From assembly GCA_019648995.1 (NCBI GenBank), contig BLXT01006878.1:2657671-2678311 (forward strand): a DNA stretch of 20,641 bases, in the 5' to 3' direction. The number at the start of each line of letters is the position of its first letter. Position 1 is the first letter of the stretch. The notes beneath the pieces are model-generated. The model was given only the letters and a program-made list of their open reading frames with translations, made no database searches and was not told the origin of the DNA. Source of the DNA: Plakobranchus ocellatus (lineage: Eukaryota). Shown here one piece after another: positions 1 to 17,512 of the stretch. A program made the translations under genes and the position numbers.

Positions 1-198
1 CCTCCTAAATTGGATGGCCATTTCGATTATTTAACGCCAATGGGTGTACAAACTACTACTACTTCGATATGTTTTTTTTTTTTTTTTAATCATAATGATT
101 GAATGTTTCTTAAACAGCTGGCTCTATTATTATGAAAATTTGAAAAAAAATTTCATTCTCAGACCATCAGCTACATACGAAATGAAGAGGCAATATTG

Positions 199-545
199 TA
201 GATCTAGATTATTGAAGCCCACCTACTGACGTCAAATAATCGAAATGGCCGACTTCTTTGGGTGGGCAAAGTAGGGACCGCAGACCTCCACCAGTGCCTA
301 GATCTAGATCTATATGTAGATCTAGATATCTACATTCTATTGGAAAAGTTATAATATATAGATCTAGATCTAGGCCTACCGTGTGGGCCAAAATTGGGCC
401 AAGATCGTTGCCTTCTTTCGGTAAGAAGAAAAAGGAAAATTATTTAAATTGGTGTAATTGATTTTAGTGGGTTTGATTCAAAGGCTGAATCTTGAGATCT
501 CATATAGATCTATATCTAGATCTAGATCTAAATTAGGCCCCTAGA
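199..545. repeat. Cluster of short palindromic AGATCT/TCTAGA-based repeats (TAGATCTAGATCTA and variants)
   Basis: Four sub-clusters at 199-211, 299-335, 356-375 and 494-533. Each unit is its own reverse complement (BglII/XbaI-site palindromes). Isolated copies of tagatctag also occur at 15431-15441, 16003-16013 and about 13080-13200. Confidence 0.8.
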
Positions 546-781
546 TCACAACCTAGCAGACGACAATAACATTCTAAATAGATGAAATTGTATTTTCGGT
601 TTCGTTATGAGAAGCAAAGGTTTGCTTCTGAGAAAGGAGAGTTCTACGGTTGAATACAGGAATCGTAGAGATATCCAAAAACTTGTAACAGTTATGCCTG
701 TAAGTGAAATATCTCTTAGATTATGATTATAAGACTTGTTTTGATGCACAAAAATCGAATAACTCATCTGAAAAGTAAACC

Positions 782-784
<3 letters not shown>

Positions 785-858
<74 letters not shown>
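785..858 (+). repeat. (CT)37 dinucleotide microsatellite
   Basis: 74 nt of perfect CT repeats. It generates the spurious 'SLSLSL' ORF at 723-953. Confidence 0.98.
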
Positions 859-861
<3 letters not shown>

Positions 862-1023
862 CTATTCTCTTTTTTGTATGTGCGTCTCCTACTAATAAGG
901 GCAAATTTTATGCATTCTCCGAGCTACATATGGGAGTCTGGGTGGCAGGATGAAAAAAAAAAAGAATTTACAGAGGAGTTTTGATGACGGGGAAGGAGAG
1001 GAAGAGATAGAAATAAAAAAATT

Positions 1024-1042
1024 AATAAATAAATAAATAAAT
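1024..1042 (+). repeat. (AAAT)n tetranucleotide microsatellite (~4.5 units)
   Basis: aataaataaataaataaat. Confidence 0.9.
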
Positions 1043-1626
1043 GAAACAGGCATTCAATGGGGCAGAAAAGTGGGCAATATCACAAGTATGAAAAAAATTT
1101 GACCCAAAAATTGCACTCACAAAAAAAATAAATAATTAAATCGGAAAATTTGCAAACAAATTGCAAAAGAATGCTCTAACTCTAAATTAAATGAAAATAA
1201 TGTATTTAACAATCCATACCAAGAAACAGTACACAAAAAATATTTTTTAAAAACTAATGGAATTAGGACTTAAATTTCACTTGAATACTTTTTACTGCAT
1301 TAAATTTACAATGGGAGCACGATGCATTCTTAAAAAAAAAAAAAACAAATAAATAATCACTTACCTTGTTTGTTACCTCAAATCATCATCAGGTACCTTG
1401 TCTGGAACAGACATTGGCGATCATGTTCCTCCACTCAACCTATTCTCAGTTAACCTTATAAAGTTGTTATTGCTACCTTTGCCTAATGCCCATGACTAAG
1501 ACTTTCAATAAAAGTCATTCTCTGTCTACCTCTATTGCGTTTGCCTTCAATCTTTCCAGTGGTCGCTAAAAGTTCTAAACCCTTTTGTCGGCAAATATAG
1601 ACTAAAAATTGTAGTTGCCTCTGTCT

Positions 1627-1661
1627 TATGGCTTTCTTTACCTATGGCTTAGAAAGCCATA
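1627..1661. repeat. Perfect hairpin: 11-bp inverted repeat (tatggctttct / agaaagccata) with a 13-nt loop
   Basis: 1627-1637 is the exact reverse complement of 1651-1661. The loop (ttacctatggctt) itself repeats the stem motif tatggctt. Confidence 0.7.
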
Positions 1662-2243
1662 GGTCACGGATTTTATTCCGTGGGAAAGAGTCTCTATGAA
1701 TTCTTTATTTTCCTGTGTTTGCGGTGGTGTAATAAAAAAATGTAATCATTTATCTTTTATGAACAATTGTGTCAACAGAGTGGAAACTTCAACGCTCTTA
1801 GAATTTGTATTGTAAAAAATTATCCAAGCTATTTTCTGGACTTGTTTAAAAATAGACCCTACAAAAAGGTTAGAACACTAAAACTTTAAATTTTTCCATG
1901 TTGAGGTTTCGCCTCCTCCCAAACAAAATATAAATTGCTTATAAATAGAAGGTTTCATGATAGCTTGGAAAATCCAAACTCTTCTTTTAAAATGGCGAAC
2001 CGTCAAACATTTACGAAAGCCCCTCTATAGGGGCCTATGTGATTTTAGGGACAAATTAACCAACTTTTTATACAACGGAACAAATCCACTGTAAAAAAAA
2101 ATCCGTCTGTGATCTTTTAAATGCTTTCAAAGATCTGAAACATTTTTTTTTTCTGGAGATGAGCTTGCCATACTGCCTAGAACTATTTGTAACGCCCTAG
2201 ATCTCTAGCTTGTCTTCCCTTCCTATGTGTTTTGCTATGGGTC

Positions 2244-2251
2244 TATAAATA
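2244..2251 (+). promoter_or_regulatory. TATA-like box (TATAAATA) upstream of a GC-richer island
   Basis: Consensus TATAAATA about 35 nt upstream of where the base composition shifts to about 50% GC with several CpGs (2280-2560). Confidence 0.2.
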
Positions 2252-2526
2252 GATAAGGTTTTACAACTTAAATCTATCAGGACATGTTGCATCAGCAGAG
2301 TTGACAGTGGCACAAGTTGCCAGTTGTGGCGCCTTATCTCACACAGATGCCTGAAACTATTCAACACCAAAGACATCTGAGGGCTTTGTTTAGGGCGCTC
2401 TCGACTCGTCTCGAGCCAGCTGTGATGCACTCAATGTCACTTCCTCTGCTGGACCTCTTGGAGTTAATTTTTCAAAGTACCAAGCTCTGGTGTAGGAGGT
2501 AGGGAACATCAACTTGGCAGGATTGA

Positions 2527-2574
2527 AAAATTCCACTTCAGGAATTGAATGCGAGGGTGACCTTCAGCAGAAGA
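2527..2574 (+). CDS. Possible upstream exon fragment of the same gene (KIPLQELNARVTFSRR), ending at consensus donor
   Basis: Perfect donor AGAAGA|GTAAGT at 2575-2580 ending in phase 0, matching the phase-0 acceptor at 3334. It lies at the 3' edge of a GC-richer CpG-containing island (2280-2560) preceded by TATAAATA at 2244-2251. There is no in-frame ATG: the ORF-track 'M' at 2545 is TTG, and the ATG at 2549 is out of frame. The true first exon and start are therefore unresolved. Confidence 0.15.
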
Positions 2575-3333
2575 GTAAGTGCTAAAAATTTAAAAAATGC
2601 AAAACAAAAAAAAAAATTGAAAAAAGTTGCAAAATGTGCAAAAATTGCGGTCCCAATGCGACATAGCCATCAGAAGGGCTTGCCTATGTTAGGTTTTCAA
2701 CGAGAATGCTATGAATTGTTTCAAGGACTAGTTTGTTGAAGACTCCGCAGCGACTGCAACATGTACTTTTAAGCTAATGTCATAATCTTCTGTGCACAGC
2801 CTTCTGTGAGAGACTAATATAAAAAAAACTTGCTCTACAAAATAGAGCCTTAGAGCTTTCATTTGTAGTGCTTTTTTTATTTTTATTTGGGAAACTAGTA
2901 TGTTATATCTTTAATGGAATCACATACTATTGTCGTTAATATTTTTAGAAATCAAATTGAAACTAGATTTTTTTAATGTGTAATTTTCGCTTATGATGCA
3001 GCTGCTTTTAAAATTGAAATCAGATATACATTGAATTTTATCGAGTGATTTTGGATTAAAACCGTCAGACTAAAAGGCCTGTCTAGCTCTCTACAAGTCT
3101 AAATACAAACATGATGCAATTAGTTTTCAAGAAAGTATATATCTCATAGTTACACTTAAACTGTTGGTGGTTCGTGTTGCTATCTGACATAATTCAGTGT
3201 GAATATTGATGACGGCATGTACCTGAAGTAAATCTTGAGGACTTCAGCACAAAGTTTATTTCCTTGAACGGGAACCGCATTGTTAAGTTATGTATTATTC
3301 ATTGACTCTGATGTTGTTGGTTTTTTTTTACAG

Positions 3334-3613
3334 TTTCATCTACTGTTTGGAATGGATATTCTTCGTAAAATGATGAGTTTATCAAGTCATTATTCTATTA
3401 CTCCATGTCATTGTTATTCTATCGATGTCAAAATACTCACGATGATATGTATATCTTTATTGCCTTTTGGAGCCAAATGCCTTGAAAAACAAAGAAAGAT
3501 TATCTTCTTTTCTCCATCTGCTGCTTTTATTGATTTTGATGATGCTTATTTAGAAGCAGCTTTGAGTTGTTCTCTAGGAAGAGAACAATCAGTTGTTTTA
3601 TCTATCGATCAGA
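3334..3613 (+). CDS. Candidate internal exon of an unrecognised spliced gene (phase 0 to 1): FHLLFGMDILRKMMSLSSHYSITPCHCYSIDVKILTMICISLLPFGAKCLEKQRKIIFFSPSAAFIDFDDAYLEAALSCSLGREQSVVLSIDQ
   Basis: 93 stop-free codons bounded by a strong acceptor gttggttttttttttacag|T (AG at 3332-3333) and a strong donor CAGA|GTAGGT (GT at 3614-3615). Phase-compatible with the upstream donor AGAAGA|GTAAGT (2575) and with a downstream exon candidate. I recognise no homologue. By chance alone an ORF this long is expected about 0.5 times in a window this AT-rich. Confidence 0.3.
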
Positions 3614-3697
3614 GTAGGTGCTTGATTTACATATGACGTAACATTGTTATCTGCATCTATTTATTTAGCTGAATAGAAGTATTCTTAAAGCGTGCAG

Positions 3698-3817
3698 TTG
3701 GTCAGCTTTCTCTGCTCGTTGGAAATCTGCCCTTGAATTTGCTGTTCCTCAAAATCATTGAAATAAACGACGGTCTACCCATACAAGACTTCAAGTTCAA
3801 CAAGGCAAACACAACAC
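3698..3817 (+). CDS. Candidate next exon of the same unrecognised gene (phase 1 to 1): (I)GQLSLLVGNLPLNLLFLKIIEINDGLPIQDFKFNKANTT
   Basis: Acceptor cgtgcag|TT (AG 3696-3697) lies 84 nt after the previous donor. It is in the same reading phase as the exon 3334-3613 predicts. The frame is open from 3673 to 3882. Donor CAC|GTATGT at 3818. Confidence 0.22.
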
Positions 3818-4485
3818 GTATGTTGTTTCAATCAAGTTTATTCTTTCAAAGTATCAAGATAATAATGTTCAATTGTCTCTGAAACTTAAATTAATAATCA
3901 GCCCAACGCCAGATAACTTGTAAAGGAAGGATTAATACATGTATGAGGTCAACATACCTCAATCTGTATAAATAACACTCGAGCCTTTCAGTTAAGCTAT
4001 TCAAAATGTTTTTTTTCGATTACATGACTATTTCTTTTTGGATTTTTAAAATAATTAACAAGATCGGTGTTTTGCAGGATGGATTGGCTGGGCGGGGTCG
4101 ACATAATATTGGCTTATCATACTTAGCCGAGTGCTTGATTAAATACAGTAGGGAGCAGATGTCACTTACACTAGTCAAAAACATAGTCCAAACAAAAGTT
4201 TTTCTAAGAATCTAAGTCTGTTTATTTGACAATTACAAAAGTATGCAGAAAAAAATAAAGTCGTGGCAGTTGGGTTCAATTCATTAAAATTGCATGGCAC
4301 TAAAAGAGAATGTGAGAGATGTGCATAACTGTTTTGATAAATAAAATTCGGCTCCAAGTCTTTATTGGGTATAAGATTAAGACGAAACAGCAAAATATCA
4401 TTTTTATTAGGCTCACACGGACTCTTCTTGTATCCTAGAGCTATGTTTATTTTATAATTGGCTCTGAAATGCCTGATCAGAAAAG

Positions 4486-4740
4486 ATTTTTTGCCCTCTC
4501 TGTTCTCAGCATGTTTATCTTACGCTTTAAAAGCATAATGACCCGATTGCGCTTGTTTATTTGAGATCTGCGTCTGAAATTACCAGCTTGTCATTGAAGG
4601 GCCTTTTCATTTCAATCCAATATTACGCCTGAATGAAAATGACACGTTTGGCCCTCTCTTTTCTGGTCAAGTTTATCTTAGACTTAAATATATCATGTGC
4701 ATATGACCCAGTTGCATCAGGATCTGGTAGATTACACTTG
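4486..4740 (+). repeat. Pair of diverged ~85-bp direct repeats about 160 bp apart
   Basis: ttgccctctctgttctcagcatgtttatcttacgctttaaaagcataatgacccgattgcgcttg... (about 4486-4570) versus ttggccctctcttttctggtcaagtttatcttagacttaaatatatcatgtgcatatgacccagttgcatcag... (about 4650-4740). They share blocks CCCTCTCT, GTTTATCTTA, ATGACCC and TTGC in the same order. Confidence 0.6.
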
Positions 4741-4969
4741 GGTGTTCGAAATTATTTAATCGGTACATATAAAGTTTATCTGTTGGTAGATAAAGTTGAG
4801 ATCGTCGAGTCGATATTTTAAGTTATTTGGACAAGAGATATTCCATCGTTCACGTTCATAAAATTTTATTGATAGACCTCTGAAAAATGCTTAACGATAT
4901 TTAAACTTATCGTAGAACAAGGAGCATTTTTAATCAAATGTATTGATTCTAAATTTGTGAATTGTTGGA

Positions 4970-6919
4970 ATGGATAATACAGCGAACAAAAAGAGGACAG
5001 CTTGTGTTCTGCCTTGCTCTAATACAAAATCTCAACCTCCAGTAGACCATGGCTGGGCATGGTTTGTTATGTTGGGAGCAACAGTTAATGTTATGGTGCT
5101 CATGGTGTTTTTACGAGCCAGCTCTTTACTATTCATTCAATTTCTGGATATCTATCAGGCTTCTGCGACCATGACAACTCTAGTTTTCGCTCTGTCGTCT
5201 ACAACATTCTCTGTCAGCAACATCTTAGCCGCTACTGTTCTCCTGCCGCGCTACGATGTGAGGACTTTAGGCATAATTGGTGCACTGGTAAATTTCGTAA
5301 GCACTATAGGCATTGCGTTTGCTCCAAACATAGCTGTGGTGAACATCATGTTTGCTATAGTAGGATTTGCCCATGGATTGATTGTCGTTCCTCAGTTAAC
5401 GCTGCTCGGCCATTATTTCAAACGGCATTTATCTCTCGCCACAGCCACTACCACCATGGGCATTAGTCTGGCCACCATTTTCGGGACACCACTCACGCAA
5501 GTGCTACTTGATATTTATGATGTTAGGGGCACAATTCTTCTTTTAGCTGGAGTTACATTGCATTGCGTACCGGCATCTTTATTGCTTCGACCAGTCTCAT
5601 TTTATTCAGCCTCTCCTTTCTCGGTGCATCCACAAGATGAGGATGTAGCTGAAAAGAGCTCAAGTGGTGTGCTAAATAACATTTTTTATGACAAAAACAG
5701 AGATTCTATGCGACAAGGTGACAAAGCTCCTTTCTTGGTGCAAAACAATAAACTTAATCATAAACGTGAAGTTATCGTTGAGGAAGATAAAAATGAAACG
5801 TCCAACTCAGAAGATCAGTGTAAAGAGGATGACCAGAAATCGTCATCGACAATTGAAACAAGTGACAAAGATATTTGCACTCCTCGTCTACTTCAGAAAA
5901 TGCCACCACCTAGAATACGGAGCGTAAGCGAAAGCTGGCATGTTCTAGAGAATAAGATGAACAATCACAGACACCTGTACGGCAAAAATGACATTTTTAT
6001 GGAATATTCTGATACAAACGGCTCGACTGTATTAGGTCGCAAAGCGAGTTCTGCAGGCGTTAAAACCTCTCTCTCTAATATTCTTTCAGCAAGTATTAGA
6101 TACCTTGGTGACACCAGCTCTTTCTACGGCAGTTCTGTATCCCAAATCCATCACATTCACACACGCGGCATTGAAACTCGTTCAGTTATAGACTTGGGTC
6201 ACAACCAAGCTGAGATCTCAACCTTATTCGAAAACGCAAGTACCTCAAGTTCTGAAAGTGAAATCAGCGTTAAGAAAAGAGGAAAGAGTTTCTTTTGCCG
6301 TCTAAAACGCTTAGCCTCTCAGAGTGTCTTCACCCATCCTGTAGGCCTACTCATACTCTTAGCCTCCGGATTGGGCATCCATACGCAGGCAGGAGTAGCC
6401 TATATGCCTGCCACTGGCATTGAAAACGGTTGTACTGAGGAGCAGGTGCCTTTTCTCATGACTGCCGTTGGTGTAGCTGACGTGGTAAGCAAGCTTTGTA
6501 TGGGCTTCTTGGCCGACACAGGCATTATTAAACGCATTCATGTCGCGTGTCTGTCGCAATTAACTATCGGGTTGCTCTTCCAGTTAGTGCCAGTGTTCCA
6601 AGGATTTATTTTGATGATTCTATTGCAGGCACTGATAGGATTCACTGTGGGGGTGTTTCATATGCTGGTTCCAGTCATCACAGTAGATTTGCTGGGCGTG
6701 CAGCATATGGGCCATATAATGGCAGGTTATATGCTGATTAATGGCTTCACCAACGCTATTGACCATTTGGTTGTTGGCTCTCTTAGCGATCTCACTGGGT
6801 CTTTTTATGGCGCATACCACTACATGGGTTCTTTAACACTTATGTCAGTCGCTATGCTCTTATCGCAGCCACTCGTTGAACGCTGCTTAACACGTTCAAG
6901 CGCAGAAGCAACAGTTTAG
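4970..6919 (+). CDS. Monocarboxylate transporter (SLC16/MCT family, MFS superfamily), single uninterrupted ORF of 649 aa
   Basis: ATG at 4970 with an in-frame TGA immediately upstream (4958-4960) and no acceptor between, so no N-terminal extension. TAG stop at 6917-6919. The translation carries both SLC16 signature motifs: TM1 '...VDHGWAWFVMLGA' (the [D/E]G[G/S][W/F][G/A]W box) and TM5 'GHYFKRHLSLATATTTMGISLA' (the YFxK[R/K]xLAxGxxxxG box). Hydropathy by eye gives 6+6 TM helices split by a ~240-aa hydrophilic loop (SPFSVHPQDED...KRLASQSV). GC content of the ORF (~45%) is clearly above the flanks. AATAAA signals at 7037-7042 and 7090-7095 downstream. Confidence 0.85.
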   Translation: MDNTANKKRTACVLPCSNTKSQPPVDHGWAWFVMLGATVNVMVLMVFLRASSLLFIQFLDIYQASATMTTLVFALSSTTFSVSNILAATVLLPRYDVRTLGIIGALVNFVSTIGIAFAPNIAVVNIMFAIVGFAHGLIVVPQLTLLGHYFKRHLSLATATTTMGISLATIFGTPLTQVLLDIYDVRGTILLLAGVTLHCVPASLLLRPVSFYSASPFSVHPQDEDVAEKSSSGVLNNIFYDKNRDSMRQGDKAPFLVQNNKLNHKREVIVEEDKNETSNSEDQCKEDDQKSSSTIETSDKDICTPRLLQKMPPPRIRSVSESWHVLENKMNNHRHLYGKNDIFMEYSDTNGSTVLGRKASSAGVKTSLSNILSASIRYLGDTSSFYGSSVSQIHHIHTRGIETRSVIDLGHNQAEISTLFENASTSSSESEISVKKRGKSFFCRLKRLASQSVFTHPVGLLILLASGLGIHTQAGVAYMPATGIENGCTEEQVPFLMTAVGVADVVSKLCMGFLADTGIIKRIHVACLSQLTIGLLFQLVPVFQGFILMILLQALIGFTVGVFHMLVPVITVDLLGVQHMGHIMAGYMLINGFTNAIDHLVVGSLSDLTGSFYGAYHYMGSLTLMSVAMLLSQPLVERCLTRSSAEATV

Positions 6920-7036
6920 CAAAATACAATACAATTTTCATAATAATTTTTTAAAATATGAATATCTCTTTATTCGATATTTTCGTCAATTTTTTTCTGT
7001 AATTAATTTTTTTAAGCCTGAAAGAAGTCCCCAATT

Positions 7037-7095
7037 AATAAAACACTTTTTTTTACAGAATATAATTTACCATTAAATTTGCAGATCGTAATAAA
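7037..7095 (+). promoter_or_regulatory. Candidate polyadenylation signals (AATAAA x2) for the MCT transcript
   Basis: AATAAA at 7037-7042 and 7090-7095, which is 118-176 nt downstream of the MCT stop in AT-rich 3' flank. Confidence 0.4.
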
Positions 7096-7287
7096 GATAT
7101 TCTTCTCGCCAGTTAATACAATTCACTAATTAATTGAATATTAATATCAAACACGTCTCTCTAATTTACCCGTAAAGCACGCCATTCCAAGTGACTTTCA
7201 GAGACCAAAAAAGACGGGAGAGAGAGAAAAGGATGAGAGAACAGAAAAAGAGGGAGAGGGGGAGGATCAAAGAAACAGAGAGGAAAA

Positions 7288-7290
<3 letters not shown>

Positions 7291-7334
<44 letters not shown>
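7291..7334 (+). repeat. (AG)22 microsatellite embedded in a ~160-nt polypurine tract (about 7190-7350)
   Basis: Perfect AG repeats flanked by an A/G-only run (gacgggagagagagaaaaggatgagagaacagaaaaagagggagagggggagg...). It generates the spurious - strand ORF at 7161-7457. Confidence 0.98.
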
Positions 7335-7341
<7 letters not shown>

Positions 7342-10300
7342 GACGGGGGATACAGTGTACATCCTAATTTTATAAAATTTCCATGAGTGTGTGTAAAAGA
7401 ACAGGAAAACAAAGGTAAGCCTTTTGTTTTACTAAGAAAAAATGAAAGAATAAACATACCTTAGTATACGGTATTCCATAAATACTAAAAGTTTCACAAT
7501 AACAAATTATGCTTACATGGTTGGTCATCTATCACTGTCGGAACGATAACAACTACAGCCTGTGCATCCATCTCCATAACATGGATATTATTTAAAGAGG
7601 ATGGATATTATTATTATAAAATCGTTTCATATGTGCAAAATAAATCAAACTCTATGCCAAATTATTGCTTTGCTGATTTTTTTTCATTATCTTAGTAGAC
7701 TTATTTTGCAAAAAAATTGCTTGGGATAATCTCATAGTAAATAGATTGAATGGTGATAGAGATAGACACATGTAACGATAATGGTGAACTTCTTTCACAG
7801 AGGTAAAAATGAATGTGAGTAACCTTTTTGCAAACTGTTGCCAGTAAGAAATTACATAGTTGAAATTTCAAAATGAAACAATAGCAAAATAATATAAAAA
7901 CATTTCACCTTTATTTTAACTTCATCATAGCAATTACAATGATGGCATCTGACAGCATTAAAGACACAGGCTAGGAAACGTTTGTGTACTATTGAAACTA
8001 AAAGGCCAAACATTAAAAATCGAAAATAATATAATTTTGCGTTTGCTTCATTTTTAAAATACTATTATATATTTTCTAGTTCGCAACTGTTTTCTTCTTT
8101 ATATTATAATTCACTTACCTTTGCATCCTTCGGACTGAATTTTGTATTGCTTTTAGTGCTTTCTGCCTGGCGATTGGCGATTTGTCTTTTTTCCTATTAT
8201 GTGTAATAATCATTGTCTTATATTAAAACTATTTTTATCACATTGGTTTGCTTATGTACGATGTTCTGTTATTGAATGTTGAACATCTTACAAACTAATT
8301 TAGCATGTTTGTGTTTTTTTTTAAGTTTAAACTTATGAAGATTTTTGGCATAAGTTACATCGAACAGCAACCCCGTGTGCTTTCTTTCCAGTGTTACATT
8401 TCTTTCCTTTTTTAAAATGATTAAAATTCAGAATCACTCATGCCGTTTTGCTTTTGACTGAGGCAAGAAATATTTAACAAAGAATCTTATTTTTAAAATA
8501 TGATTATAGTTAACAATTATGTCGTGAAGCAAATCTTTTTAGTTGTAACAAATAATCAGATGCACATTTATGCATCGCAAACATGACTACGATGTACAGT
8601 ATATGTTTATTAATGCACATGAAAACATTGATGAATAGGTTTGCACATCATAATGTGTTATGCATCAGTTGAATTTTTGTTTTTGTGGTTTTAAAAATAC
8701 ATCCAAACCAACTGCTGTGGGGCAGAATGTATTAAGTATACATTCTTGAAAACAGCAGCTGCTGCTCAGATAAATGAGCACAAAAACAACCAAATTTTCT
8801 TTTTTTATGCTCTACCCATTAGTTTTCCCAATGCATATCATCCATCATCTTGTGTGGGACATGTGGCACCTACAGATGTGCTCCATTCCACCCTGCTCTT
8901 TCCCACCCAGCCATTTGAACTTATTCCATTTGACATAAAAATGTCATTATCAATACCACAGGTCACGAAATTCACACATACTTACCATGACTTATATTTC
9001 TTTATAACAAGAACGAAGGATAATAGTCTTCACTTGAAATATATGAAGATAAGGAAAAAAATCTTTATTTAAATCAAAAAGTTTTATGATATGAAGAAAA
9101 TACAAGAGTCATTAGGTTGTGCGATGTATATAATTTGTATAAACTGTAACTTTTCACCTATATAAAATAATAAAAAACATAAAATCACAGGGAAGTGTTT
9201 CAAAAGCCCTCCTTTTTTTATCTCTTGAACATTTTACACCCAAGGCAATACTTGGCCATGTTTTTAGCAAAAAGCATACTAAAAAAACAATGTTCGTTGT
9301 TTTTTTCCCTTTTCTCTTTCATCAAATGTACATGTTCTATGCCATATGTGCTTTTGTTTAAGGCATTCTATAATATTGTTTTACATCCAATGGCTATTCT
9401 TTATTTTTTGTATGAAATGGACATTACCTTTTGAAAAAATGAAGACAATTTCTTATTTTCATTTACCTATAACATCTGATGTGGATGTTGGTCTCCCAAC
9501 AATTAACTCCCCCAAAATGTATTGGGTGTTTTTTGTCACAATTTAACCAGCCCCTAGGATCCAGCCTGACAAGGGTTAAAAAAGCCTGACAGCATTAAGC
9601 AGTGGCCATTTATGAGACATTGTGTCTTTTATTCAGAGATAATGCTATCTTCTTTTCTATCTTAATTCCTCAGCTTCATTTGCAACTTATTAGGATTGGT
9701 TTCAGAAAAGTTAACTTTTATTCCAACCTTACTTTTTCTAGGTTGTCTACACATTCTTCAGAAATGTAAGTTGAAATTCATCATCTTTCATCTTTTTCAA
9801 TGAAACTAAAAAGCAAGTAAAAAGAATCTAAAAGCTTATAGACCTTACCCCTCGTCTCCCTCAACACAAAATTGTAAAGATTAAAAACTGAATGAAGACA
9901 GGTATAAAAAATGTTTTAACAAACCAGTTCTGCAAACAAAACTTAAATGTGTGTAAAAGAAGAATAATATTACTCAAAATACTGCAAAATCTTTTTCAAA
10001 AGCAATTGCAAAAAGCAAAAATTAAGTTATAGAAATGTAACAAACATGTATTTATAGTAAAATCAATGAAAAAATATATGTTGTGTCACTTTTTTTTTAC
10101 ATTTGTGAATGTGTTGAAAGATATATGTATTTATTTTATTCAATTTCTGGAATAAGACGTTATCTGTAACAAGGGAGGAAGTTTTTACAGAAAAAAAATA
10201 TTAAACAGAGAAATGAATTTACCACAGAGAGAAAGATATCACTGTAAATAATTGTAAAAACTGAGTACATCAAAAGTATATGAATAAACAATGTTGGTTA

Positions 10301-10488
10301 AAACAATTTAAAGTACACAAAGTCTTTTTTTTTCAAATGAATATATTAAAGACCTTTGTGACTGTGGAGACCAGTTTACAATTCTAAATGTCTTAAATAA
10401 TATATTCTATGCTTTGACCCACCTTGGAAATACAATTTTAAAAAAAGTTTCCGCATCAACCCTTATAATTCATTTTGTAGAATGTAAA

Positions 10489-10507
10489 ATATATATATAT
10501 ATATATA
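10489..10507 (+). repeat. (AT)n dinucleotide microsatellite
   Basis: atatatatatatatatata. Confidence 0.9.
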
Positions 10508-10603
10508 AAATTTCATTATCAATTATTTTCATGAATGAATCTGCCTCTAAACTCAATTATATTAAAATATGTAAACATATCAGTGCCACATTGGCATATA
10601 AAA

Positions 10604-10649
10604 GATATCAAAATTGATTTATATAAAGGATATCAAAATTGATTTATAT
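10604..10649 (+). repeat. Perfect 21-bp direct duplication (gatatcaaaattgatttatat x2, 4-nt spacer)
   Basis: Copies at 10604-10624 and 10629-10649 are identical. Confidence 0.9.
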
Positions 10650-11541
10650 TAAAAAACATTAAACATGCATACTTTAATCTTATTATACAAACACCATTGC
10701 AAAAATATAAATGTAACAACAAACCAGCACACCACTTCATATAGCTGTGAGTATAAGACAAACTTGGCAAAGAAATGGCTCTGTAATGACTCATTCTTTA
10801 TCTGTGTATACTTATAAAATCTTTTTCTGCATGTTGATGCACTGGCTTTTAAAAATTATAAACTTTCTAGGTTTTTAAAAGCCAACAGTGAGGCCAGACA
10901 ATTTCTGCATTTACTAGAAATACTTCTTGAGACACAAGGTTACACTGTTTCCATGAAGATGCAAAAAAATCTGTACACTTTCTCTTGGAAATCACAAGTA
11001 TAAGGAACCTACGGAGGATAACCTTTCCTCTGCCTTTATCAGATTCTGTTTTTTACATCATATATAAAATAGACATTGGCACAGAAAGAGTTAAGATTTT
11101 GATATTTTGACATTTCAGTTTTCTTCAGTTGTGCAGCTGTTTGGTTTAACTTTTTTTTCCGGATAAAACAGCATCATGTTAAAAAATTGTGATCCATAAA
11201 AAGAATAATGTGCTACTTTATATTGACGAACCAAACAAATTCCACTTTATGGTTTTGAAAATTAATAAAAATTTATCTAGAGTTTAATTTTGAAGGAAAA
11301 AATATAGAAAAGTGAGAAAAATATCATGATTTAACTAAGCTTTTGCTAAAACAATGGTGCTACCCCTTACTTTCTTGGTGATAATTTATTTTTTTTCTTG
11401 GTACATTCCCTGAGGATTTGTTTTTATTTTTACTTTGTCTTCTTTTTTGAAATACAATATATTGTCCTTCTAAATTATCTTTTCTGAAAGACAATATTGG
11501 ATAGATCATACTGTCTGTAGATACTGTGCAGTATATTCTGA

Positions 11542-11559
11542 TTTATTTTCCATTTTATT
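11542..11559 (-). promoter_or_regulatory. Tandem AATAAA polyadenylation signals for the MVP transcript
   Basis: On the - strand, AATAAA occurs at + 11554-11559 and + 11542-11547, which is 9 and 21 nt after the TAG stop. Confidence 0.6.
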
Positions 11560-11567
11560 GAGTAATG

Positions 11568-11690
11568 CTAATCTTGGGAGTAAGTATGGTCTTTGCCCAC
11601 AAGACCTGCAGCAGTGTTGATCAGGTTGATTGGGGAGTTGCCATCTGTTAGTAGGACACTCTCCAAGCCAAGACCCTTCAGTAAATTCAG
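11568..11690 (-). CDS. MVP: Major vault protein terminal exon: [40 protein letters not shown]
   Basis: Matches the human MVP cap-ring '[30 protein letters not shown]' very closely. Excellent acceptor caattgttttttcag|CTG (+ ctg 11691-11693), phase 0. An in-frame TGA 15 nt upstream rules out any extension. TAG stop at + 11568-11570. It is followed on the - strand by two AATAAA signals within 30 nt. Confidence 0.85.
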
Positions 11691-13851
11691 CTGAAAAAAC
11701 AATTGTCACTTAATACTTAATTTTTTTTTAAATAATTAAAGAAGATTAGTACTGGACTCTGAGCAAAATAAATAGATATACCTTGAATAAGAGGTAAATT
11801 TTTATTTTTTTTATAACCAATTTAAAAAGCCTTAAAAAGGGAACCTACAAACAAAATTATAGGACAAGATTTGCTGATATACTTCTTCTTTTTTTTTCCG
11901 TTAAGTCCTGCTCAGATCCTGGGATTCAAAATGCGGAAAAGTTAAAAACTTGAAATATTTAGCTGCCTCAAATCGAGAATGAAATAGATTTCAGCTTAAA
12001 AATTATATCAAATTAAAAATGACATAAATGGCAAATGAAGGAAAATGGTAATATTTCTTTTGAAATGGCACAAAAACATGTAAGAAAAATAGACATGTCA
12101 TAAAAAAGAATATATGTAAACCTGGTTTTGGGGTCCTGCATTTGCCATAGCCACAATAGTTGCAGGACCTAGAGCATTCACCATTTCTCTGAACTTGTTT
12201 ACCTTATGTGGACAAAAAAAGTATTGACCATTGAAAACAATTAAATTATCACTTTACTAAACATTTGAACTCATTTAAGGTAAATTAAAATACAAAGCAA
12301 AGAATCTTTGGATTTAAATGAGAAATTTCAACCTGAAAAAAATAAGCTTGGCAGCTTAACTCTAAGATTAACAAAAACCTACTACAAAAACAAACTTTAA
12401 AGATGTACAGTAATTTTGCGGCAAAATCCTGTTGAAGTGGTCTACATAATTTGAAAGCATTTGAAATATGTTTCTGTGGAGTATTCCATGATGAAAAATA
12501 TTGTTTTCCAAGACTGTGAAAATCCAATGTTCAAAAACATAAAACTCATACTTAATGTCATTCTTGTAGGGCACCACAATTCTAAGGTTTTGAGAAAAAA
12601 AAAGCATTTTAATTTGTTCTCTCATTGATGTATTTTTTAACTCTTGTATATGCAACACTTCCTTTGCATTTCTCAATTGTTTTATTAATTACTGAAAATA
12701 ATAGAAGACTTGGGACTGGTCATACACAGTCTCAAAGAGACTGAATCAAGACCTTGATTCACCGCTCATTGTAGACTAGATATATATCATTCAAACTAAA
12801 AATAAAAAAAAACCTGCTAAGACCAAAAGATTTCAGATAAGTTCCCTCTCTCTTTCTTTTCCCCGTTTGACTAACAAAGCTGACGATATATAGGTAAAGA
12901 TTTATTTAAATTGGCAAATTAATTGGGTGGATGACGTATGGCAAACAAAGCTATAATTCGCAAGGGAAAAAAAGCTTTTAAAAAACCTTAGATAAAAAAT
13001 TAGGTAATAAGTCCCTCCCCACTCCCACCCTTTCTCGCCTGATCCTGCAAAGTTCATTCCCAGAACATCAGTTATCACTAGATCTATCAAAGAACATTGA
13101 TTATCTCTTAAAAAAACAAGCTTGCAGCTACCTCATCAGAAATATGATGCTCACCTACCCATCCCACGATCTATCTTAAAAATAAGTCTAGCACTAGATT
13201 TAGATAAATATCAGGCACTCATGACAACCACTGACGGTCAGGGTTTGCATTTCTTTGTAAAGGACTTGGCAAAGTTTACATCTTTCTACCCATCTCTCCT
13301 GCACTCAGTCCCTGTTGACCACATGCCCCAAATTTGAGTGATAGACAGTTAAAACAAACAAACCTGCAAGGCATAGCGATGATAAACCCGCATATAAGTT
13401 TCATACAGTCAAAACCACTGTCACCAACCCAAATTTATGACTGGAAAGAGGCCATTAAATTTTTTTGTCCTCCTCTCTCTTTAAAAAACAAACATCAAAT
13501 AAAATGATGACAAACTTTCCATGTTAGCAAAGACTGATGGAGCAACCAATTATATTATTTTTATTTAGTGGATCTCCTTCACTATGCTATTTTGAACACA
13601 GCAATGTCAAACCTATGAATTTTTTTCTAATGATTTTGAGGTACCTGTGCTGGACTTCATTTATTAAGACTGCAAAACAGATTGAAAATTGAAACACATT
13701 GAAATGTTCCCAGAATATGTTATAAACATACCTCTATCTGTGAGAAGCTTTTCTGTTTCTCAATCTCCATAACATTAACTTTTCTGTTGTGATCTATGTC
13801 ACTTTTCTGTAACTGTAAAAACAAATTTTGAAAAGAAAAAAAATTGGACCA

Positions 13852-13852
<1 letters not shown>

Positions 13853-13884
<32 letters not shown>
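13853..13884 (+). repeat. Poly(A) tract, A32
   Basis: 32 consecutive A, lying inside the MVP intron between exons 11690 and 13996. Confidence 0.98.
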
Positions 13885-13887
<3 letters not shown>

Positions 13888-13995
13888 TCAAGAAGCCACC
13901 TTAGTCACAATCTAAAATTATACTTTTGAGGGTTGAAAGACAGTTTTTTGCACCTCCAATCGACCTTCTTTTTTTAATTAGATTTACTTGTCTAC

Positions 13996-14172
13996 AGCTG
14001 ATAGTGATGGCAACATAAATAATTTAACCAAGAATTTGGTCATTTGATCAGACATTTCTTCATACTGACATAATATGTATTTCATCTCAGCATTATTTTC
14101 ATTCTTCAGCCAGTTTTTGCCCAAATGATCCAATCTTTCATAATTTTGGTGATACAAAGTTCTCACTTTCAA
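13996..14172 (-). CDS. MVP: Major vault protein exon (divergent cap-helix segment): LKVRTLYHQNYERLDHLGKNWLKNENNAEMKYILCQYEEMSDQMTKFLVKLFMLPSLSA
   Basis: Strong acceptor tatattttgcag|TTG (+ ctg 14173-14175). Open in one frame only. Starts with KVR as in human 'QKVRELELVY...', and 'QMT' aligns with human 'KQMTEAIGP'. The 3' end was chosen at donor GCT|GTAGAC (phase 0) because the next confident exon needs phase 0. A better-looking donor GACAA|GTAAAT (exon end 13988, phase 2) exists but is phase-incompatible. Otherwise the frame runs into TAA at 13984-13986. Confidence 0.5.
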
Positions 14173-14903
14173 CTGCAAAATATATTTTGAAGGACTTGCA
14201 TTTTCACAAGCTGACAAAGATCATAATTATATTGAAACTGTAATGTTGCTTGATTTATCTAAAGGTATTGGGAACATATTATTATATAAGTCAAAAGTTC
14301 ATTTGTGTTGCAGTCCCTCAAAATGAGTTGAGTTGCGGTTTTGCATGATTAACTAAAGAGAAAAAAAAACATTCACTAGAGGGGTGAACACTATCAACCT
14401 CTCTGCATGGAAAACTTACTACAGACACACTTTAAGATTTTTGCACATGAAGCATTAGAAATTTTTTACCTCTTTACTTTAATATCTTAAGTTAATTTCA
14501 GTGATGCAGATCCGCAACTTGACCCATTTTGTGAGATTCCTCACATTCAGACAACAAAGGAATTGGAAAGACCTAGCATTTAAATTATAATTCATTTGGT
14601 CGACAAAAACATGTGATGAAGAAGAGGAAAAACTCACACACTTAAGTTTTTTCAAACAAAAGAAATTGTAATCAAAGAGAATTCTTGTCATGTGTATTCA
14701 CTCTACTGACAATAAAAGAGATTTCGAGGCACACTTTTTTTTAACTGCTCAATTTACCTTTTGATACATTTTTCCTTATAAAAATAATTGTCATATTAAT
14801 GTCAAATATGTCAAATAAGGTTACCACAATGAAGCACTGAAAAAAAAACTACTTTCAGTGTAAAAACATGCAGGCTTAAATTGCCAAAAAAAAAAAGCCT
14901 TAC

Positions 14904-14968
14904 CATAACTTTTATTGACAACAGAGAACTGTCCTCTATGTTAGCAGCTTCTGCCTTGAGTTTAGCCA
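14904..14968 (-). CDS. MVP: Major vault protein exon (phase 1 to 0): VAKLKAEAANIEDSSLLSIKVM
   Basis: Acceptor tttctttgcattag|TG (+ ctaa 14969-14972). Donor ATG|GTAAGG (+ ccttac 14898-14903). Aligns without gaps to human 'LQAKLKAQALAIETEAELQRVQKV' (AKLKA, IE, L, KV conserved). The spacing from the IEG motif of the preceding exon is identical to human. Confidence 0.75.
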
Positions 14969-16327
14969 CTAATGCAAAGAAAGAAAATACAAGAAATTTA
15001 TAGCAAAATTAGTTCAACACATTTTGTTTGAGATAAGCGACTCCAATCAAGGGAGATTCAAGATAAGCCTCTTTTTTTTTTAAAAACACTCTTAAAATAA
15101 TGTTTGGATATTTTCATCAACCTGTTGACTTGAAATTTGCCTTTGTTCATTCATTATTCAGAGAATGCCTGGATAAATAATGTTTGGACATTTTTACAAG
15201 TTGTGTATTCAAAATATTTTTAGGGAGTACTAATTATAATAAATCAGAAATAAAAACTCCTAAGCAACATTACATCAAGAAAGAATCAATTTTTCCATCA
15301 TGCAATTATAAGCTTAGTGCAACCAGAGGGTAATTCAAGCAATGACATCTTTTTTCTATGACCCTAACCTGGTTTGTGATGTGGTTTAGTCAAAATGGGT
15401 CACAGATGTAAACAATGCCAAATTTCTGTTAGATCTAGACTTATAATCTGTACAGATTTCAGAGTCTTAAAATTTCATTATAGTAAGTGTTTCAAAATTC
15501 ACAGTGATGAAAATGTGTCGGCATCAAAAAAGTGCTGTTACTGACAATGCCATGCCTTACATGTTCCTGGCTCCTAGATACTCATTTGCATAAATGAATG
15601 CCGGTTAATCACAAATATTTTTAGTCTCAATCAGACGACAAAAAAGGAAAAAAAAAAACTAAAATTTTTTTTTAAAGCCAAATTAAGGCTTTTTTTTTCT
15701 TCAAAATACTGACAATAAAATTAGCGGGTCAAAAAAAAAATTTTATTTTGATGTGCAACAAATTGTTTAAGAGATCGTGACGGTGTAAATTTAACCAACA
15801 AAAGCTTGCTGTTTCCTGGCTATTTCAGTCTTGCCTGAATCTGTATATCTATGCTATGATTAATTTAGTCACAATCAACTTGAGCAAGCGATGTAGCCTT
15901 TTGCATATACTCATGATGGACATAGTGATGAATAAACCTTCACTAACAAATCAGTTTTACTTTTAGAATTATTCGTATGTTAGGCAAGACTTATTTAAGG
16001 TCTAGATCTAATTGTAACGCAAATACACCGAGAAGACAGTTGTATCTATGAGATGAATGGTATTTGTTTACATCCAAGTCCCATTTCCTTGTTCATGCAA
16101 CTGCATCAAAATCCAAGGTCATGACCGAGTAAATATTCAAAAAAGCCTGTGGGTTTTCCCCCTTAGATATTTCCATGAACTTTAAAAAAAAAACATGTTA
16201 AAAGCATTCCTTCTCTGCCTGAAGTCATCTTGAGGGATGATTCCTCTCTATTAGTGAGTTCTTTGAAAATCTGTTTTATTTCTCAGTTTCTTTCCAGATG
16301 AAAAGGAAAATGGTAACAACATCCTAC

Positions 16328-16554
16328 CCTCAATGTCACTCTGGCCTTCAATCAGCAATCTCTCTGCCTGTGCCTGTGCCTCAGCTTTTGCTTGACCTGT
16401 TGACTCAACTGCAGCAGTCTGAGCCTTCAGCTCATATAGCTTCACTCGCTCTCGTTCAGACTCCTTCTCTGTCATCAGTATTTGGCGTTCTAGATGACCA
16501 CGAGCAATCTGCTCTTCCCTGGCTGCCTCATGAGATGCTGCTGCTTCAATAGAT
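16328..16554 (-). CDS. MVP: Major vault protein exon (phase 2 to 1): (K)SIEAAASHEAAREEQIARGHLERQILMTEKESERERVKLYELKAQTAAVESTGQAKAEAQAQAERLLIEGQSDIE
   Basis: Colinear with human MVP '[74 protein letters not shown]' (cap-helix coiled coil). Acceptor ctttgtgcag|A (+ 16555-16557). Donor GAGG|GTAGGA (+ tcctac 16322-16327). The phase-2 donor of the 19334 exon completes AAA (K) across the ~2.8-kb intron. Confidence 0.9.
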
Positions 16555-17512
16555 CTGCACAAAGATGTTCAATACAGTGCAATTCAGTTACTGTAGAGTT
16601 CTTGATTCCAGGGTAATATCAAAGAATGAGAAAGATAGAATTAATCAGAAAGCAAAATGTAAGCCACAAGCACTTGGTATGCTTCAATCTGAATCCTACA
16701 GCATATGCCATTCTGCCTTGCCTCTATTTTATTCATGCTTCTTCAAATGTTATAGTAATTAGATTGTGTAAGGGCTAAGTATCAAAATATACAAACCATT
16801 TACCCCACCACTCACCTTTTCTTAACAAAAAAAAAAACAAAAACAAAAAAAAAAAGAAAGAAAAAGAAAAAAAATTATTGATATGAAGGACTGCAAATCA
16901 GCAAGAACAAACTCCTCAGTCTCTCTCGAGTCGCCATTCCCTATTTTTAGCCTCCACAATTAACTTACTCCCTGAATCTTTCATGACAAATTGTCTTAGC
17001 TTTATATCCAGGGTAATTGTCTTGATGTCAAACCCAGAGTCAAACCTCTACATCTAATTTGTAAAATAATCTATAGAAGCCATGCTGAGCTTTAACTTCT
17101 TTTCCATCTCAATCACATTCCCAATAGGCAAAAGACTGAGTAATCTCAATAGATTTTTTGTCACAAAACAAAATAAGACTCAAAAACTGAAACAGAGACA
17201 TCACATTTATAATTATGTGATCCATATGCTAGGAAATGAGTCATTTTTCTGTAGTTGCCAAATACAAATTTAAAACACATCAGTCAAACATGATAGAAGA
17301 TACAATTTTTTTCACGTATTTCAGAAATGTAACCATTTGCAATGTACTGACAATTTGCTTTTTCAATATCTTCAATAGTTTTCACATACTTTGTTTGACA
17401 CCCTATAGGGTGCTTCCTCACAAAAAAAAACATGAGTTGTATATATGATCCCATAATTACTAATTTATCATCACAAAGGTGCTGCAAAAAAAATGTCTTG
17501 AGCAAAAATCCA

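Follow-up and report, generated by a model that had tools for sequence, protein, structure and literature searches.

A 20,641-nt stretch of the Plakobranchus ocellatus genome (contig BLXT01006878.1, positions 2,657,671 to 2,678,311 of the forward strand; hereafter the window) contains a gene of the SLC16 (monocarboxylate transporter, MCT) family whose coding sequence lies in a single exon. Probably, this gene encodes a functional secondary transporter of the plasma membrane, and its uninterrupted coding sequence is best explained by an old mRNA-mediated loss of introns. The object itself is ordinary: the family is known, the long loop between transmembrane helices (TM) 6 and 7 is typical of the family, and the intronless coding sequence is typical of its clade. 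The gene has already been annotated and deposited under the same name, since the GenBank/UniRef entry "monocarboxylate transporter [Plakobranchus ocellatus]" (P0001) is identical to the 649-amino acid (aa) protein of the window. That the TM6-7 loop of SLC16 proteins varies is textbook knowledge, as are the family and its fold. Beyond routine annotation, the case is of modest evolutionary value; what is mildly new is limited to the clade-wide intron loss, an Arg-to-Lys substitution in TM8, and the loop motifs.

The gene was delimited by the following features.

4970..6919, plus strand: complete single-exon coding sequence of an SLC16/MCT-family transporter, 649 aa plus TAG, with an intact ATG-to-TAG frame
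4958..4960, plus strand: in-frame TGA, 12 nt 5' of the ATG
7037 and 7090 (span 7037..7095), plus strand: two AATAAA hexamers, candidate polyadenylation signals, 118 and 171 nt past the stop

The complete 649-aa open reading frame (ORF) described at this place by an earlier note on the same DNA was recovered without interruption. The runner-up stop-to-stop frame in the whole 20.6-kb window measured approximately 125 codons; therefore, a frame of 649 codons is far beyond chance.

Membership in SLC16 was supported by sequence and fold searches, to which the following parts of the protein contributed.

5039..5593, plus strand: N-terminal six-helix bundle, TM1-6, aa 24-208; pLDDT (predicted local distance difference test) >90; 71-78% identical to sacoglossan orthologues
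6326..6889, plus strand: C-terminal six-helix bundle, TM7-12, aa 453-640; pLDDT >90; 65-73% identical to orthologues
5045..5062, plus strand: DHGWAW, the signature leading into TM1, aa 26-31; D-R/H-G-W-A-W in most relatives
5414..5461, plus strand: TM5 signature YFKRHLSLATATTTMG, aa 149-164

Pfam MFS_1 matched the window protein in two stretches (E 1.6e-23). The phmmer search against all PDB chains yielded 12 sequences at E <= 0.01, all of them MCT1, MCT2, MCT10, or MCT8, with MCT1 as the top match (E 1.7e-23). In the phmmer alignment to MCT1, residues 12-232 were matched by the N-terminal bundle and residues 239-434 by the C-terminal one. The AlphaFold2 model, calculated from an input alignment of 61 relatives, had a predicted TM-score (pTM) of 0.71; both helix bundles were modeled with pLDDT >90 and residues 232-433 with pLDDT <50. 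Foldseek comparison of the model with PDB returned MFS transporters only. MCT1 and MCT2 were in the lead (target-normalised TM-score 0.83-0.87), followed by MCT8 (0.78-0.81), and the top 14 fold matches were all MCT1, MCT2, or MCT8. The predicted protein has the MFS fold with 12 helices arranged as 6+6 in two bundles and a cytoplasmic loop between them, in agreement with the helix count given earlier. The nearest relatives belonged to SLC16 rather than to other MFS families, and the named ones were all annotated as MCTs.

Both MCT signature motifs can be recognised, although neither follows the classical consensus exactly and the fit of the TM5 motif is partial. The TM1 lead-in consensus of MCTs is [D/E]-G-[G/S]-[W/F]-[G/A]-W. 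DHGWAW fits it at five of six positions, with His replacing the first Gly; the D, G, and final W of this signature are at least 90% conserved across the 61 relatives. The TM5 consensus is Y-F-x-K-[R/K]-[R/L]-x-L-A-x-[G/A]-x-A-x-A-G. In YFKRHLSLATATTTMG, the Y, F, L, L-A, A, and final G fit, K is conservatively replaced by R, and three replacements ([R/K] by H, A by T, and A by M) deviate. The TM5 consensus of the relatives, YFxKRRSLAxAxAxxG, is nearer to the classical motif than that of the window protein.

The word-indexed homologue search gave six proteins, and wider relatives were collected by an index-free representative search. Orthologues 52-56% identical to the window protein were found in three species of Elysia (E. 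crispata, E. marginata, and E. chlorotica) as well as in one assembly each from ENA and Logan. The Logan contig (L009, orthologue P0006) had no poly(A) tail, and transcript and genomic DNA could not be distinguished for it. In the neighbor-joining (NJ) tree taken over 60 relatives, the sacoglossan orthogroup received a bootstrap value of 100 and was placed inside a heterobranch clade with a bootstrap value of 98, which also holds P0016, another gene of Plakobranchus, and paralogues from Aplysia. According to this tree, the gene belongs to a heterobranch-gastropod-specific SLC16 expansion, and of the two origins offered by the earlier note, that of a lineage-expanded paralogue is borne out. The close relatives with a named source were all molluscan (Aplysia, Haliotis, Babylonia, Lottia, Patella, and oysters).

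These relationships bear on the possibility that an algal or bacterial MFS gene was acquired horizontally by this kleptoplastic slug or entered the assembly as a contaminant. The lack of introns would fit such a source, as would a GC content of 0.44 against flanks of 0.30-0.35. However, the named-source close relatives are all molluscs and the gene nests in a gastropod clade, its best matches in sequence and structure are MCTs of animals, and the gene neighborhood is a conserved animal one. The GC content of the ORF was 0.440 (0.50/0.40/0.42 by codon position), compared to 0.346 upstream (1-4969) and 0.297 downstream (6920-12000), while well-supported exons of the MVP gene in the same window had a GC content of 0.43-0.49. 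The GC step at the ORF is therefore that between coding and AT-rich non-coding DNA: the contrast of about 45% to about 30% reported before was roughly right in its values, but it is merely the contrast of coding with non-coding sequence. Horizontal transfer or contamination was rejected on the molluscan relatives, the nesting among gastropods, and the GC content similar to that of neighboring exons; we find it hardly credible.

The exon structure of the relatives was examined next to that of the window gene. A gene was scored as having a single coding exon when its range equalled exactly three times the protein length plus three.

E. chlorotica orthologue: 607 aa, single coding exon
E. crispata orthologue: 623 aa, single coding exon
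E. marginata orthologue: 610 aa, single coding exon
ENA assembly orthologue: 627 aa, single coding exon
Aplysia californica P0010: 652 aa, single coding exon
Aplysia californica P0009: 614 aa, single coding exon

The coding sequence is unspliced, as had been proposed, and this holds for the window gene, four sacoglossan orthologues, and two Aplysia paralogues alike. All members of the clade with a mapped structure lacked coding introns, except P0013, which appears to have one. The distant gastropod relatives were spliced, with seven coding exons in Babylonia (P0019) and five in Haliotis (P0040). Four intron positions coincided in these two genes (query aa ~32-38, 82-84, ~132, and ~603), and all four were absent from the window gene, which thus lacks the introns of its relatives. 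Based on the exon maps of the relatives and the NJ tree, the intronless coding sequence is a derived and old trait of the heterobranch SLC16 subfamily.

Since four ancestral introns are absent together, an mRNA-mediated origin is favored. An old retroposition, or gene conversion by a reverse transcript, may have stripped the introns in the ancestor of Aplysia and Sacoglossa, and tandem or dispersed duplication would have come after this event. From the sequences compared, it is plausible that retroposition, or a loss of all introns together, took place early, where the heterobranch SLC16 expansion began. As for a poly(A) remnant, no A-run of at least 8 nt was found in the 2 kb past the stop; the best 30-mer there contained 70% A, at approximately the 99th percentile of the window. 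The search for target-site duplications in the 1.5-kb flanks gave a 12-mer of A/T (ATTTTTAAAATA) as the longest shared word, and the counts of shared words were near the shuffle expectation. These missing traces are uninformative because of the age of the event. The suggested derivation from a retrogene could apply only as an ancient event shared with Elysia and Aplysia, which is plausible given the four absent introns; the gene carries neither a poly(A) tract nor target-site duplications.

Several points weigh against the interpretation as a functional transporter gene with an old mRNA-mediated intron loss. Aplysia P0013 apparently has one intron, at query aa 91-95, and because P0013 lies inside the clade, this intron is as compatible with a stepwise loss, or with a gain at a later time, as it is with retroposition. 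Since neither a poly(A) remnant nor a target-site duplication was found, the retroposition step is deduced solely from the pattern of missing introns. Introns may be present in the untranslated regions. The internal support in the NJ tree for the branching order of the paralogue lineages was weak (37-63). The roles assigned to the gene and its close relatives are predicted ones. Nor is a monocarboxylate substrate assured, given the departures in the signatures of TM1 and TM5 and the change of the substrate-binding Arg to Lys.

The first two of these points would suit a heterobranch lineage that lost its introns gradually, one after another, in place of a single retroposition or conversion by a reverse transcript: P0013 seemingly keeps an intron, and the hallmarks of retroposition are absent. 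We consider such a course possible but somewhat unlikely, as all four introns shared by Haliotis and Babylonia are missing at once in the window gene and the coding sequences of Aplysia P0009 and P0010 are uninterrupted too. Moreover, the intron of P0013 lies off the ancestral position (91-95 vs. 82-84), and its gene model is doubtful because its first exon is only 67% identical to the assembly. The loss of introns through an mRNA intermediate is the explanation we prefer.

The ORF could also be just one large exon in a longer spliced gene whose other coding exons lie 5' or 3' of it, as the SLC16 genes of Haliotis and Babylonia consist of one very large central exon and small flanking exons. 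Such an arrangement is very unlikely here. Every one of the 12 helices is encoded by the ORF, which runs from the lead-in of TM1 to beyond TM12. Because of the TGA located 12 nt 5' of the ATG, the protein could be extended N-terminally only through an acceptor within the last 9 nt before the start. The start methionine is common to five of the six sacoglossan sequences (alignment A1), P0006 being called 9 residues longer, and the C-terminal ends of all six fall within ~10 residues. The annotations of four species and two RefSeq models of Aplysia contain a single coding exon. DNA of the N-terminal bundle was conserved with Elysia over 5038-5605; at both the DNA and protein levels, nothing else was conserved with Elysia in the flanks of the ORF before the MVP exons, which argues against hidden coding exons. 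Overall, no sign of extra coding exons was found, and the single-exon interpretation of the gene stands.

The neighboring gene is MVP, which was described as intron-rich and was found to be multi-exonic on the minus strand by phmmer, tblastn, and blastn.

11509-16568, probably on to the window end, minus strand: MVP gene, multi-exonic, convergent with the MCT gene

Positions 16254-16568 of the minus strand matched residues 667-741 of rat MVP (E 8e-13, phmmer against PDB), the exon itself being placed at 16302-16562. Further MVP exons were located by tblastn and blastn against Elysia loci at ~11578-11709 (the terminal coding exon), 12113-12202, 13751-13820, and 14886-14978. The tail-to-tail arrangement of MCT and MVP is kept in E. 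chlorotica, E. crispata, and E. marginata, with a spacing of ~4.6 kb in the window and ~5.5-6 kb in the three Elysia genomes. This conserved arrangement is decisive for the question whether the gene is a young retrogene or processed pseudogene, specific to Plakobranchus and recently inserted beside MVP, as an intronless coding sequence next to an intron-rich gene and a GC content above that of the flanks might suggest. In three Elysia genomes, the ORF is uninterrupted and stands tail-to-tail with MVP; the Aplysia paralogues consist of a single exon too; the ORF is intact, with helix bundles 65-78% identical between genera; and no poly(A) tract or target-site duplication accompanies it. A young retrocopy or processed pseudogene is highly improbable and was rejected on the conserved synteny and the intact, constrained ORF. 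The intron loss is better placed in the ancestry of the heterobranch subfamily.

The two bundles are connected by a long loop, in which two conserved islands were recognised.

5594..6325, plus strand: cytoplasmic TM6-TM7 loop, aa 209-452, 244 aa; hydrophilic, Ser-rich, predicted disordered
5912..5938, plus strand: loop motif R-I-R-S-V-S-E-S-W, aa 315-323; near-invariant in six sacoglossan sequences
6068..6145, plus strand: loop motif SLSNILSASIRYLGDTSSFYGSSVSQ, aa 367-392; pattern S-N-I-L-S-x-S-x-R-Y-L-x-D-T-S-S-x-Y-G-S-S

The measured length of 244 aa and the composition (S 16.8%, K 7.4%, E 7.0%, N 6.6%, D 6.1%) agree with the earlier description of a loop of approximately 240 aa rich in Ser, Asp, Glu, and Lys. 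The maximum Kyte-Doolittle hydropathy over 19 residues was 0.54, so that the loop contains no hidden helix. The loop is 23-28% identical to that of the sacoglossan orthologues compared to 65-78% for the helix bundles, and this contrast points to a functional transporter with a fast-evolving linker. Loop lengths were compared between two shared anchors, query residues 212 and 450. The window protein has 237 aa between them, and MCT1 has ~52 aa (~4.5-fold less). For the 155 closest relatives that came out of the index-free search, the median loop length was 164 aa; 101 of them had loops of at least 150 aa and 17 had loops of at least 237 aa. The loop had been called exceptionally long; it is several-fold longer than that of MCT1, but with 17 of 155 relatives having a loop as long or longer, it is not exceptional. 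Considering the lengths in the molluscan relatives and in Drosophila Chaski, it is unremarkable among invertebrate SLC16 proteins.

The motif R-x-R-S-V-S-E-S-W was also recognisable in P0007 and Aplysia P0009, and its sequence at aa 315-323 resembles a putative site of basophilic kinases (R-x-R-x-x-S). The motif at aa 367-392 is the sole stretch of the loop that is conserved with Elysia (E. chlorotica) at the DNA level, at 6074-6149. Its core S-x-[RK]-Y-[LIM] is present in most heterobranch paralogues, with R-Y-L retained in those of Aplysia, and AlphaFold2 predicted a short helix inside it (aa 376-380). The disordered loop would serve as a cytoplasmic linker, and both motifs are most likely phosphorylation or partner-binding sites tuning trafficking or activity. 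As features read from the alignments, the two conserved loop motifs are a minor new detail.

Transport of H+ and monocarboxylates by MCT1-4 needs the charged Lys38 of TM1 and the pair Asp309/Arg313 of TM8. K38, D309, and R313 of MCT1 were aligned with R49, D504, and K508 of the window protein; the charges are kept, with conservative substitutions at two of the three positions.

6479..6493, plus strand: TM8 charged pair D504...K508, aligned to MCT1 D309...R313

Lys in place of Arg in TM8 was found in P0001-P0013, P0015, and P0016 of the heterobranch clade; P0014 has Thr, and P0049 is truncated there. Beyond the heterobranch clade, the Arg is kept in most molluscan relatives. Judged by this distribution among the sequences, the TM8 Arg-to-Lys replacement is a clade-marking substitution and a mildly new point. 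As Asp504 is kept while MCT8 and MCT10 carry Ser, the protein resembles the proton-coupled type of MCT1-4. The two bundles would work by rocker-switch alternating access in the plasma membrane, and a small organic anion or zwitterion could be held in the central cavity by Arg49 of TM1 and Asp504/Lys508 of TM8. The retained Asp504 probably favors proton coupling of the MCT1-4 type, and the clade-wide Arg-to-Lys change at TM8 may shift substrate preference. The automatic names of the molluscan relatives disagree (MCT12, 12-like, 13-like, 3-like, and 2-like), and this inconsistency argues against a simple 1:1 orthology to a vertebrate SLC16 member.

Some observations were made in the surroundings of the gene and of its relatives. 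Perfect microsatellites were found at 785-858, upstream of the MCT gene ((CT)37), and at 7291-7335, ~370 nt past the MCT stop ((AG)22.5); the latter follows a degenerate 19-nt repeat rich in purines (7200-7258). The GC content rises to 0.416 at 2001-2500 without a protein-family, RNA-family, or Elysia-conserved match, and this segment could be a repeat or an exon of an untranslated region. The minus-strand frame 1486-1641 (ATTGKIEGKRNRGRQRMTFIESL) presumably resembles the C-terminal tail of ORF2 of a non-LTR retrotransposon; this is an impression only, and Pfam gave no match. Pfam scans of raw stop-to-stop fragments, covering the MVP exons and other flanking frames, gave no matches, and scanning the window for Rfam families and tRNAs gave no hits. 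Looked up by exact sequence, neither the window protein nor P0016 was on record in the contig index. In Aplysia, two paralogues named 'MCT12', P0010 (L004) and P0013 (L008), lie ~45 kb apart on the same scaffold, KB941524.1, and therefore look like a local duplication; P0013 lies inside the range of an opposite-strand gene with a PNP_UDP_1 domain. The ENA sacoglossan contig L010 with orthologue P0002 contained a fragment of Transposase_1 (mariner-type) at 3115-3447, ~6.5 kb upstream of the MCT gene.

The absence of coding introns in sacoglossan orthologues and in two Aplysia paralogues makes the gene a clean case for old mRNA-mediated intron loss, and the TM8 Arg-to-Lys change and the two loop islands offer testable handles for the study of metabolite transport in sea slugs. 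A more far-reaching scenario can be proposed with little confidence. It holds that a single ancient retroposition or conversion in the Aplysia-Sacoglossa ancestor founded an intronless heterobranch SLC16 subfamily, which later multiplied and is marked by the TM8 Lys, at a position where Arg is otherwise near-universal, and by a long disordered loop with two conserved phospho-type motifs. If this scenario, which we consider quite unlikely, were true, the substrate or regulation could differ from those of classical MCTs; speculatively, the subfamily might handle photosynthate-derived organic acids in kleptoplastic slugs. The literature search for links of MCTs to Elysia, Plakobranchus, or kleptoplasty, or of SLC16 to intronless genes, found nothing relevant.

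Among known systems, human MCT1 (SLC16A1) and MCT2 (PDB 6LYY, 6LZ0, 7BP3), which are proton-coupled transporters of lactate and pyruvate, were the best sequence and fold match. The slug protein shares with MCT1 the 6+6 helices, the cytoplasmic TM6-7 loop, the Asp of TM8 (D309; D504 in the slug), and a basic residue in TM1 (K38; R49 in the slug). It differs in being only ~25-30% identical over the bundles, in the loop between the same anchors (~52 aa vs. 237 aa in the slug), in having Lys508 instead of Arg313 in TM8, and in the Thr-rich TM5 signature (ATATTTMG). Human SLC16A1 is a spliced gene, unlike the slug coding sequence with its one exon.

The closest named non-sacoglossan relatives are from Aplysia californica, 'monocarboxylate transporter 12' XP_005096468.1 (P0010), the name of which is automatic only, and LOC101849510 XP_005089941.1 (P0009). 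They matched with E values of 1e-111 to 1e-113 and were 46-49% identical over the matched stretches and 37-39% over the whole alignment. Both belong to the same clade with a bootstrap value of 98 and share with the slug gene the single-exon coding sequence, the TM8 Lys, a long loop (186-210 aa), and the loop motif S-x-[RK/Q]-Y-[LI]-S. Unlike the Elysia genes, they represent paralogous, not orthologous, lineages in the NJ tree, and no MVP exon was found within the flanks examined.

Drosophila Chaski is an invertebrate SLC16 protein with demonstrated lactate and pyruvate transport and a very long TM6-7 loop, its MFS halves being located at aa 135-315 and from aa 685 (PMC5775259). Compared by published description, the loop of Chaski, from a different phylum, is longer than that of the slug protein; its transport has been demonstrated, whereas the role of the slug protein is deduced from sequence and model. 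Chaski is encoded by a spliced gene.

Human MCT8 and MCT10 (SLC16A2 and SLC16A10), facilitators of thyroid hormone and aromatic amino acid transport, are members of SLC16 as well. Scored by its C-terminal bundle, the slug protein was slightly closer to MCT10 and MCT8 than to MCT1; scored as a whole, it favored MCT1. At the TM8 pair, MCT8 and MCT10 combine Ser in the place of Asp with a retained Arg, in contrast to the Asp and Lys of the slug protein.

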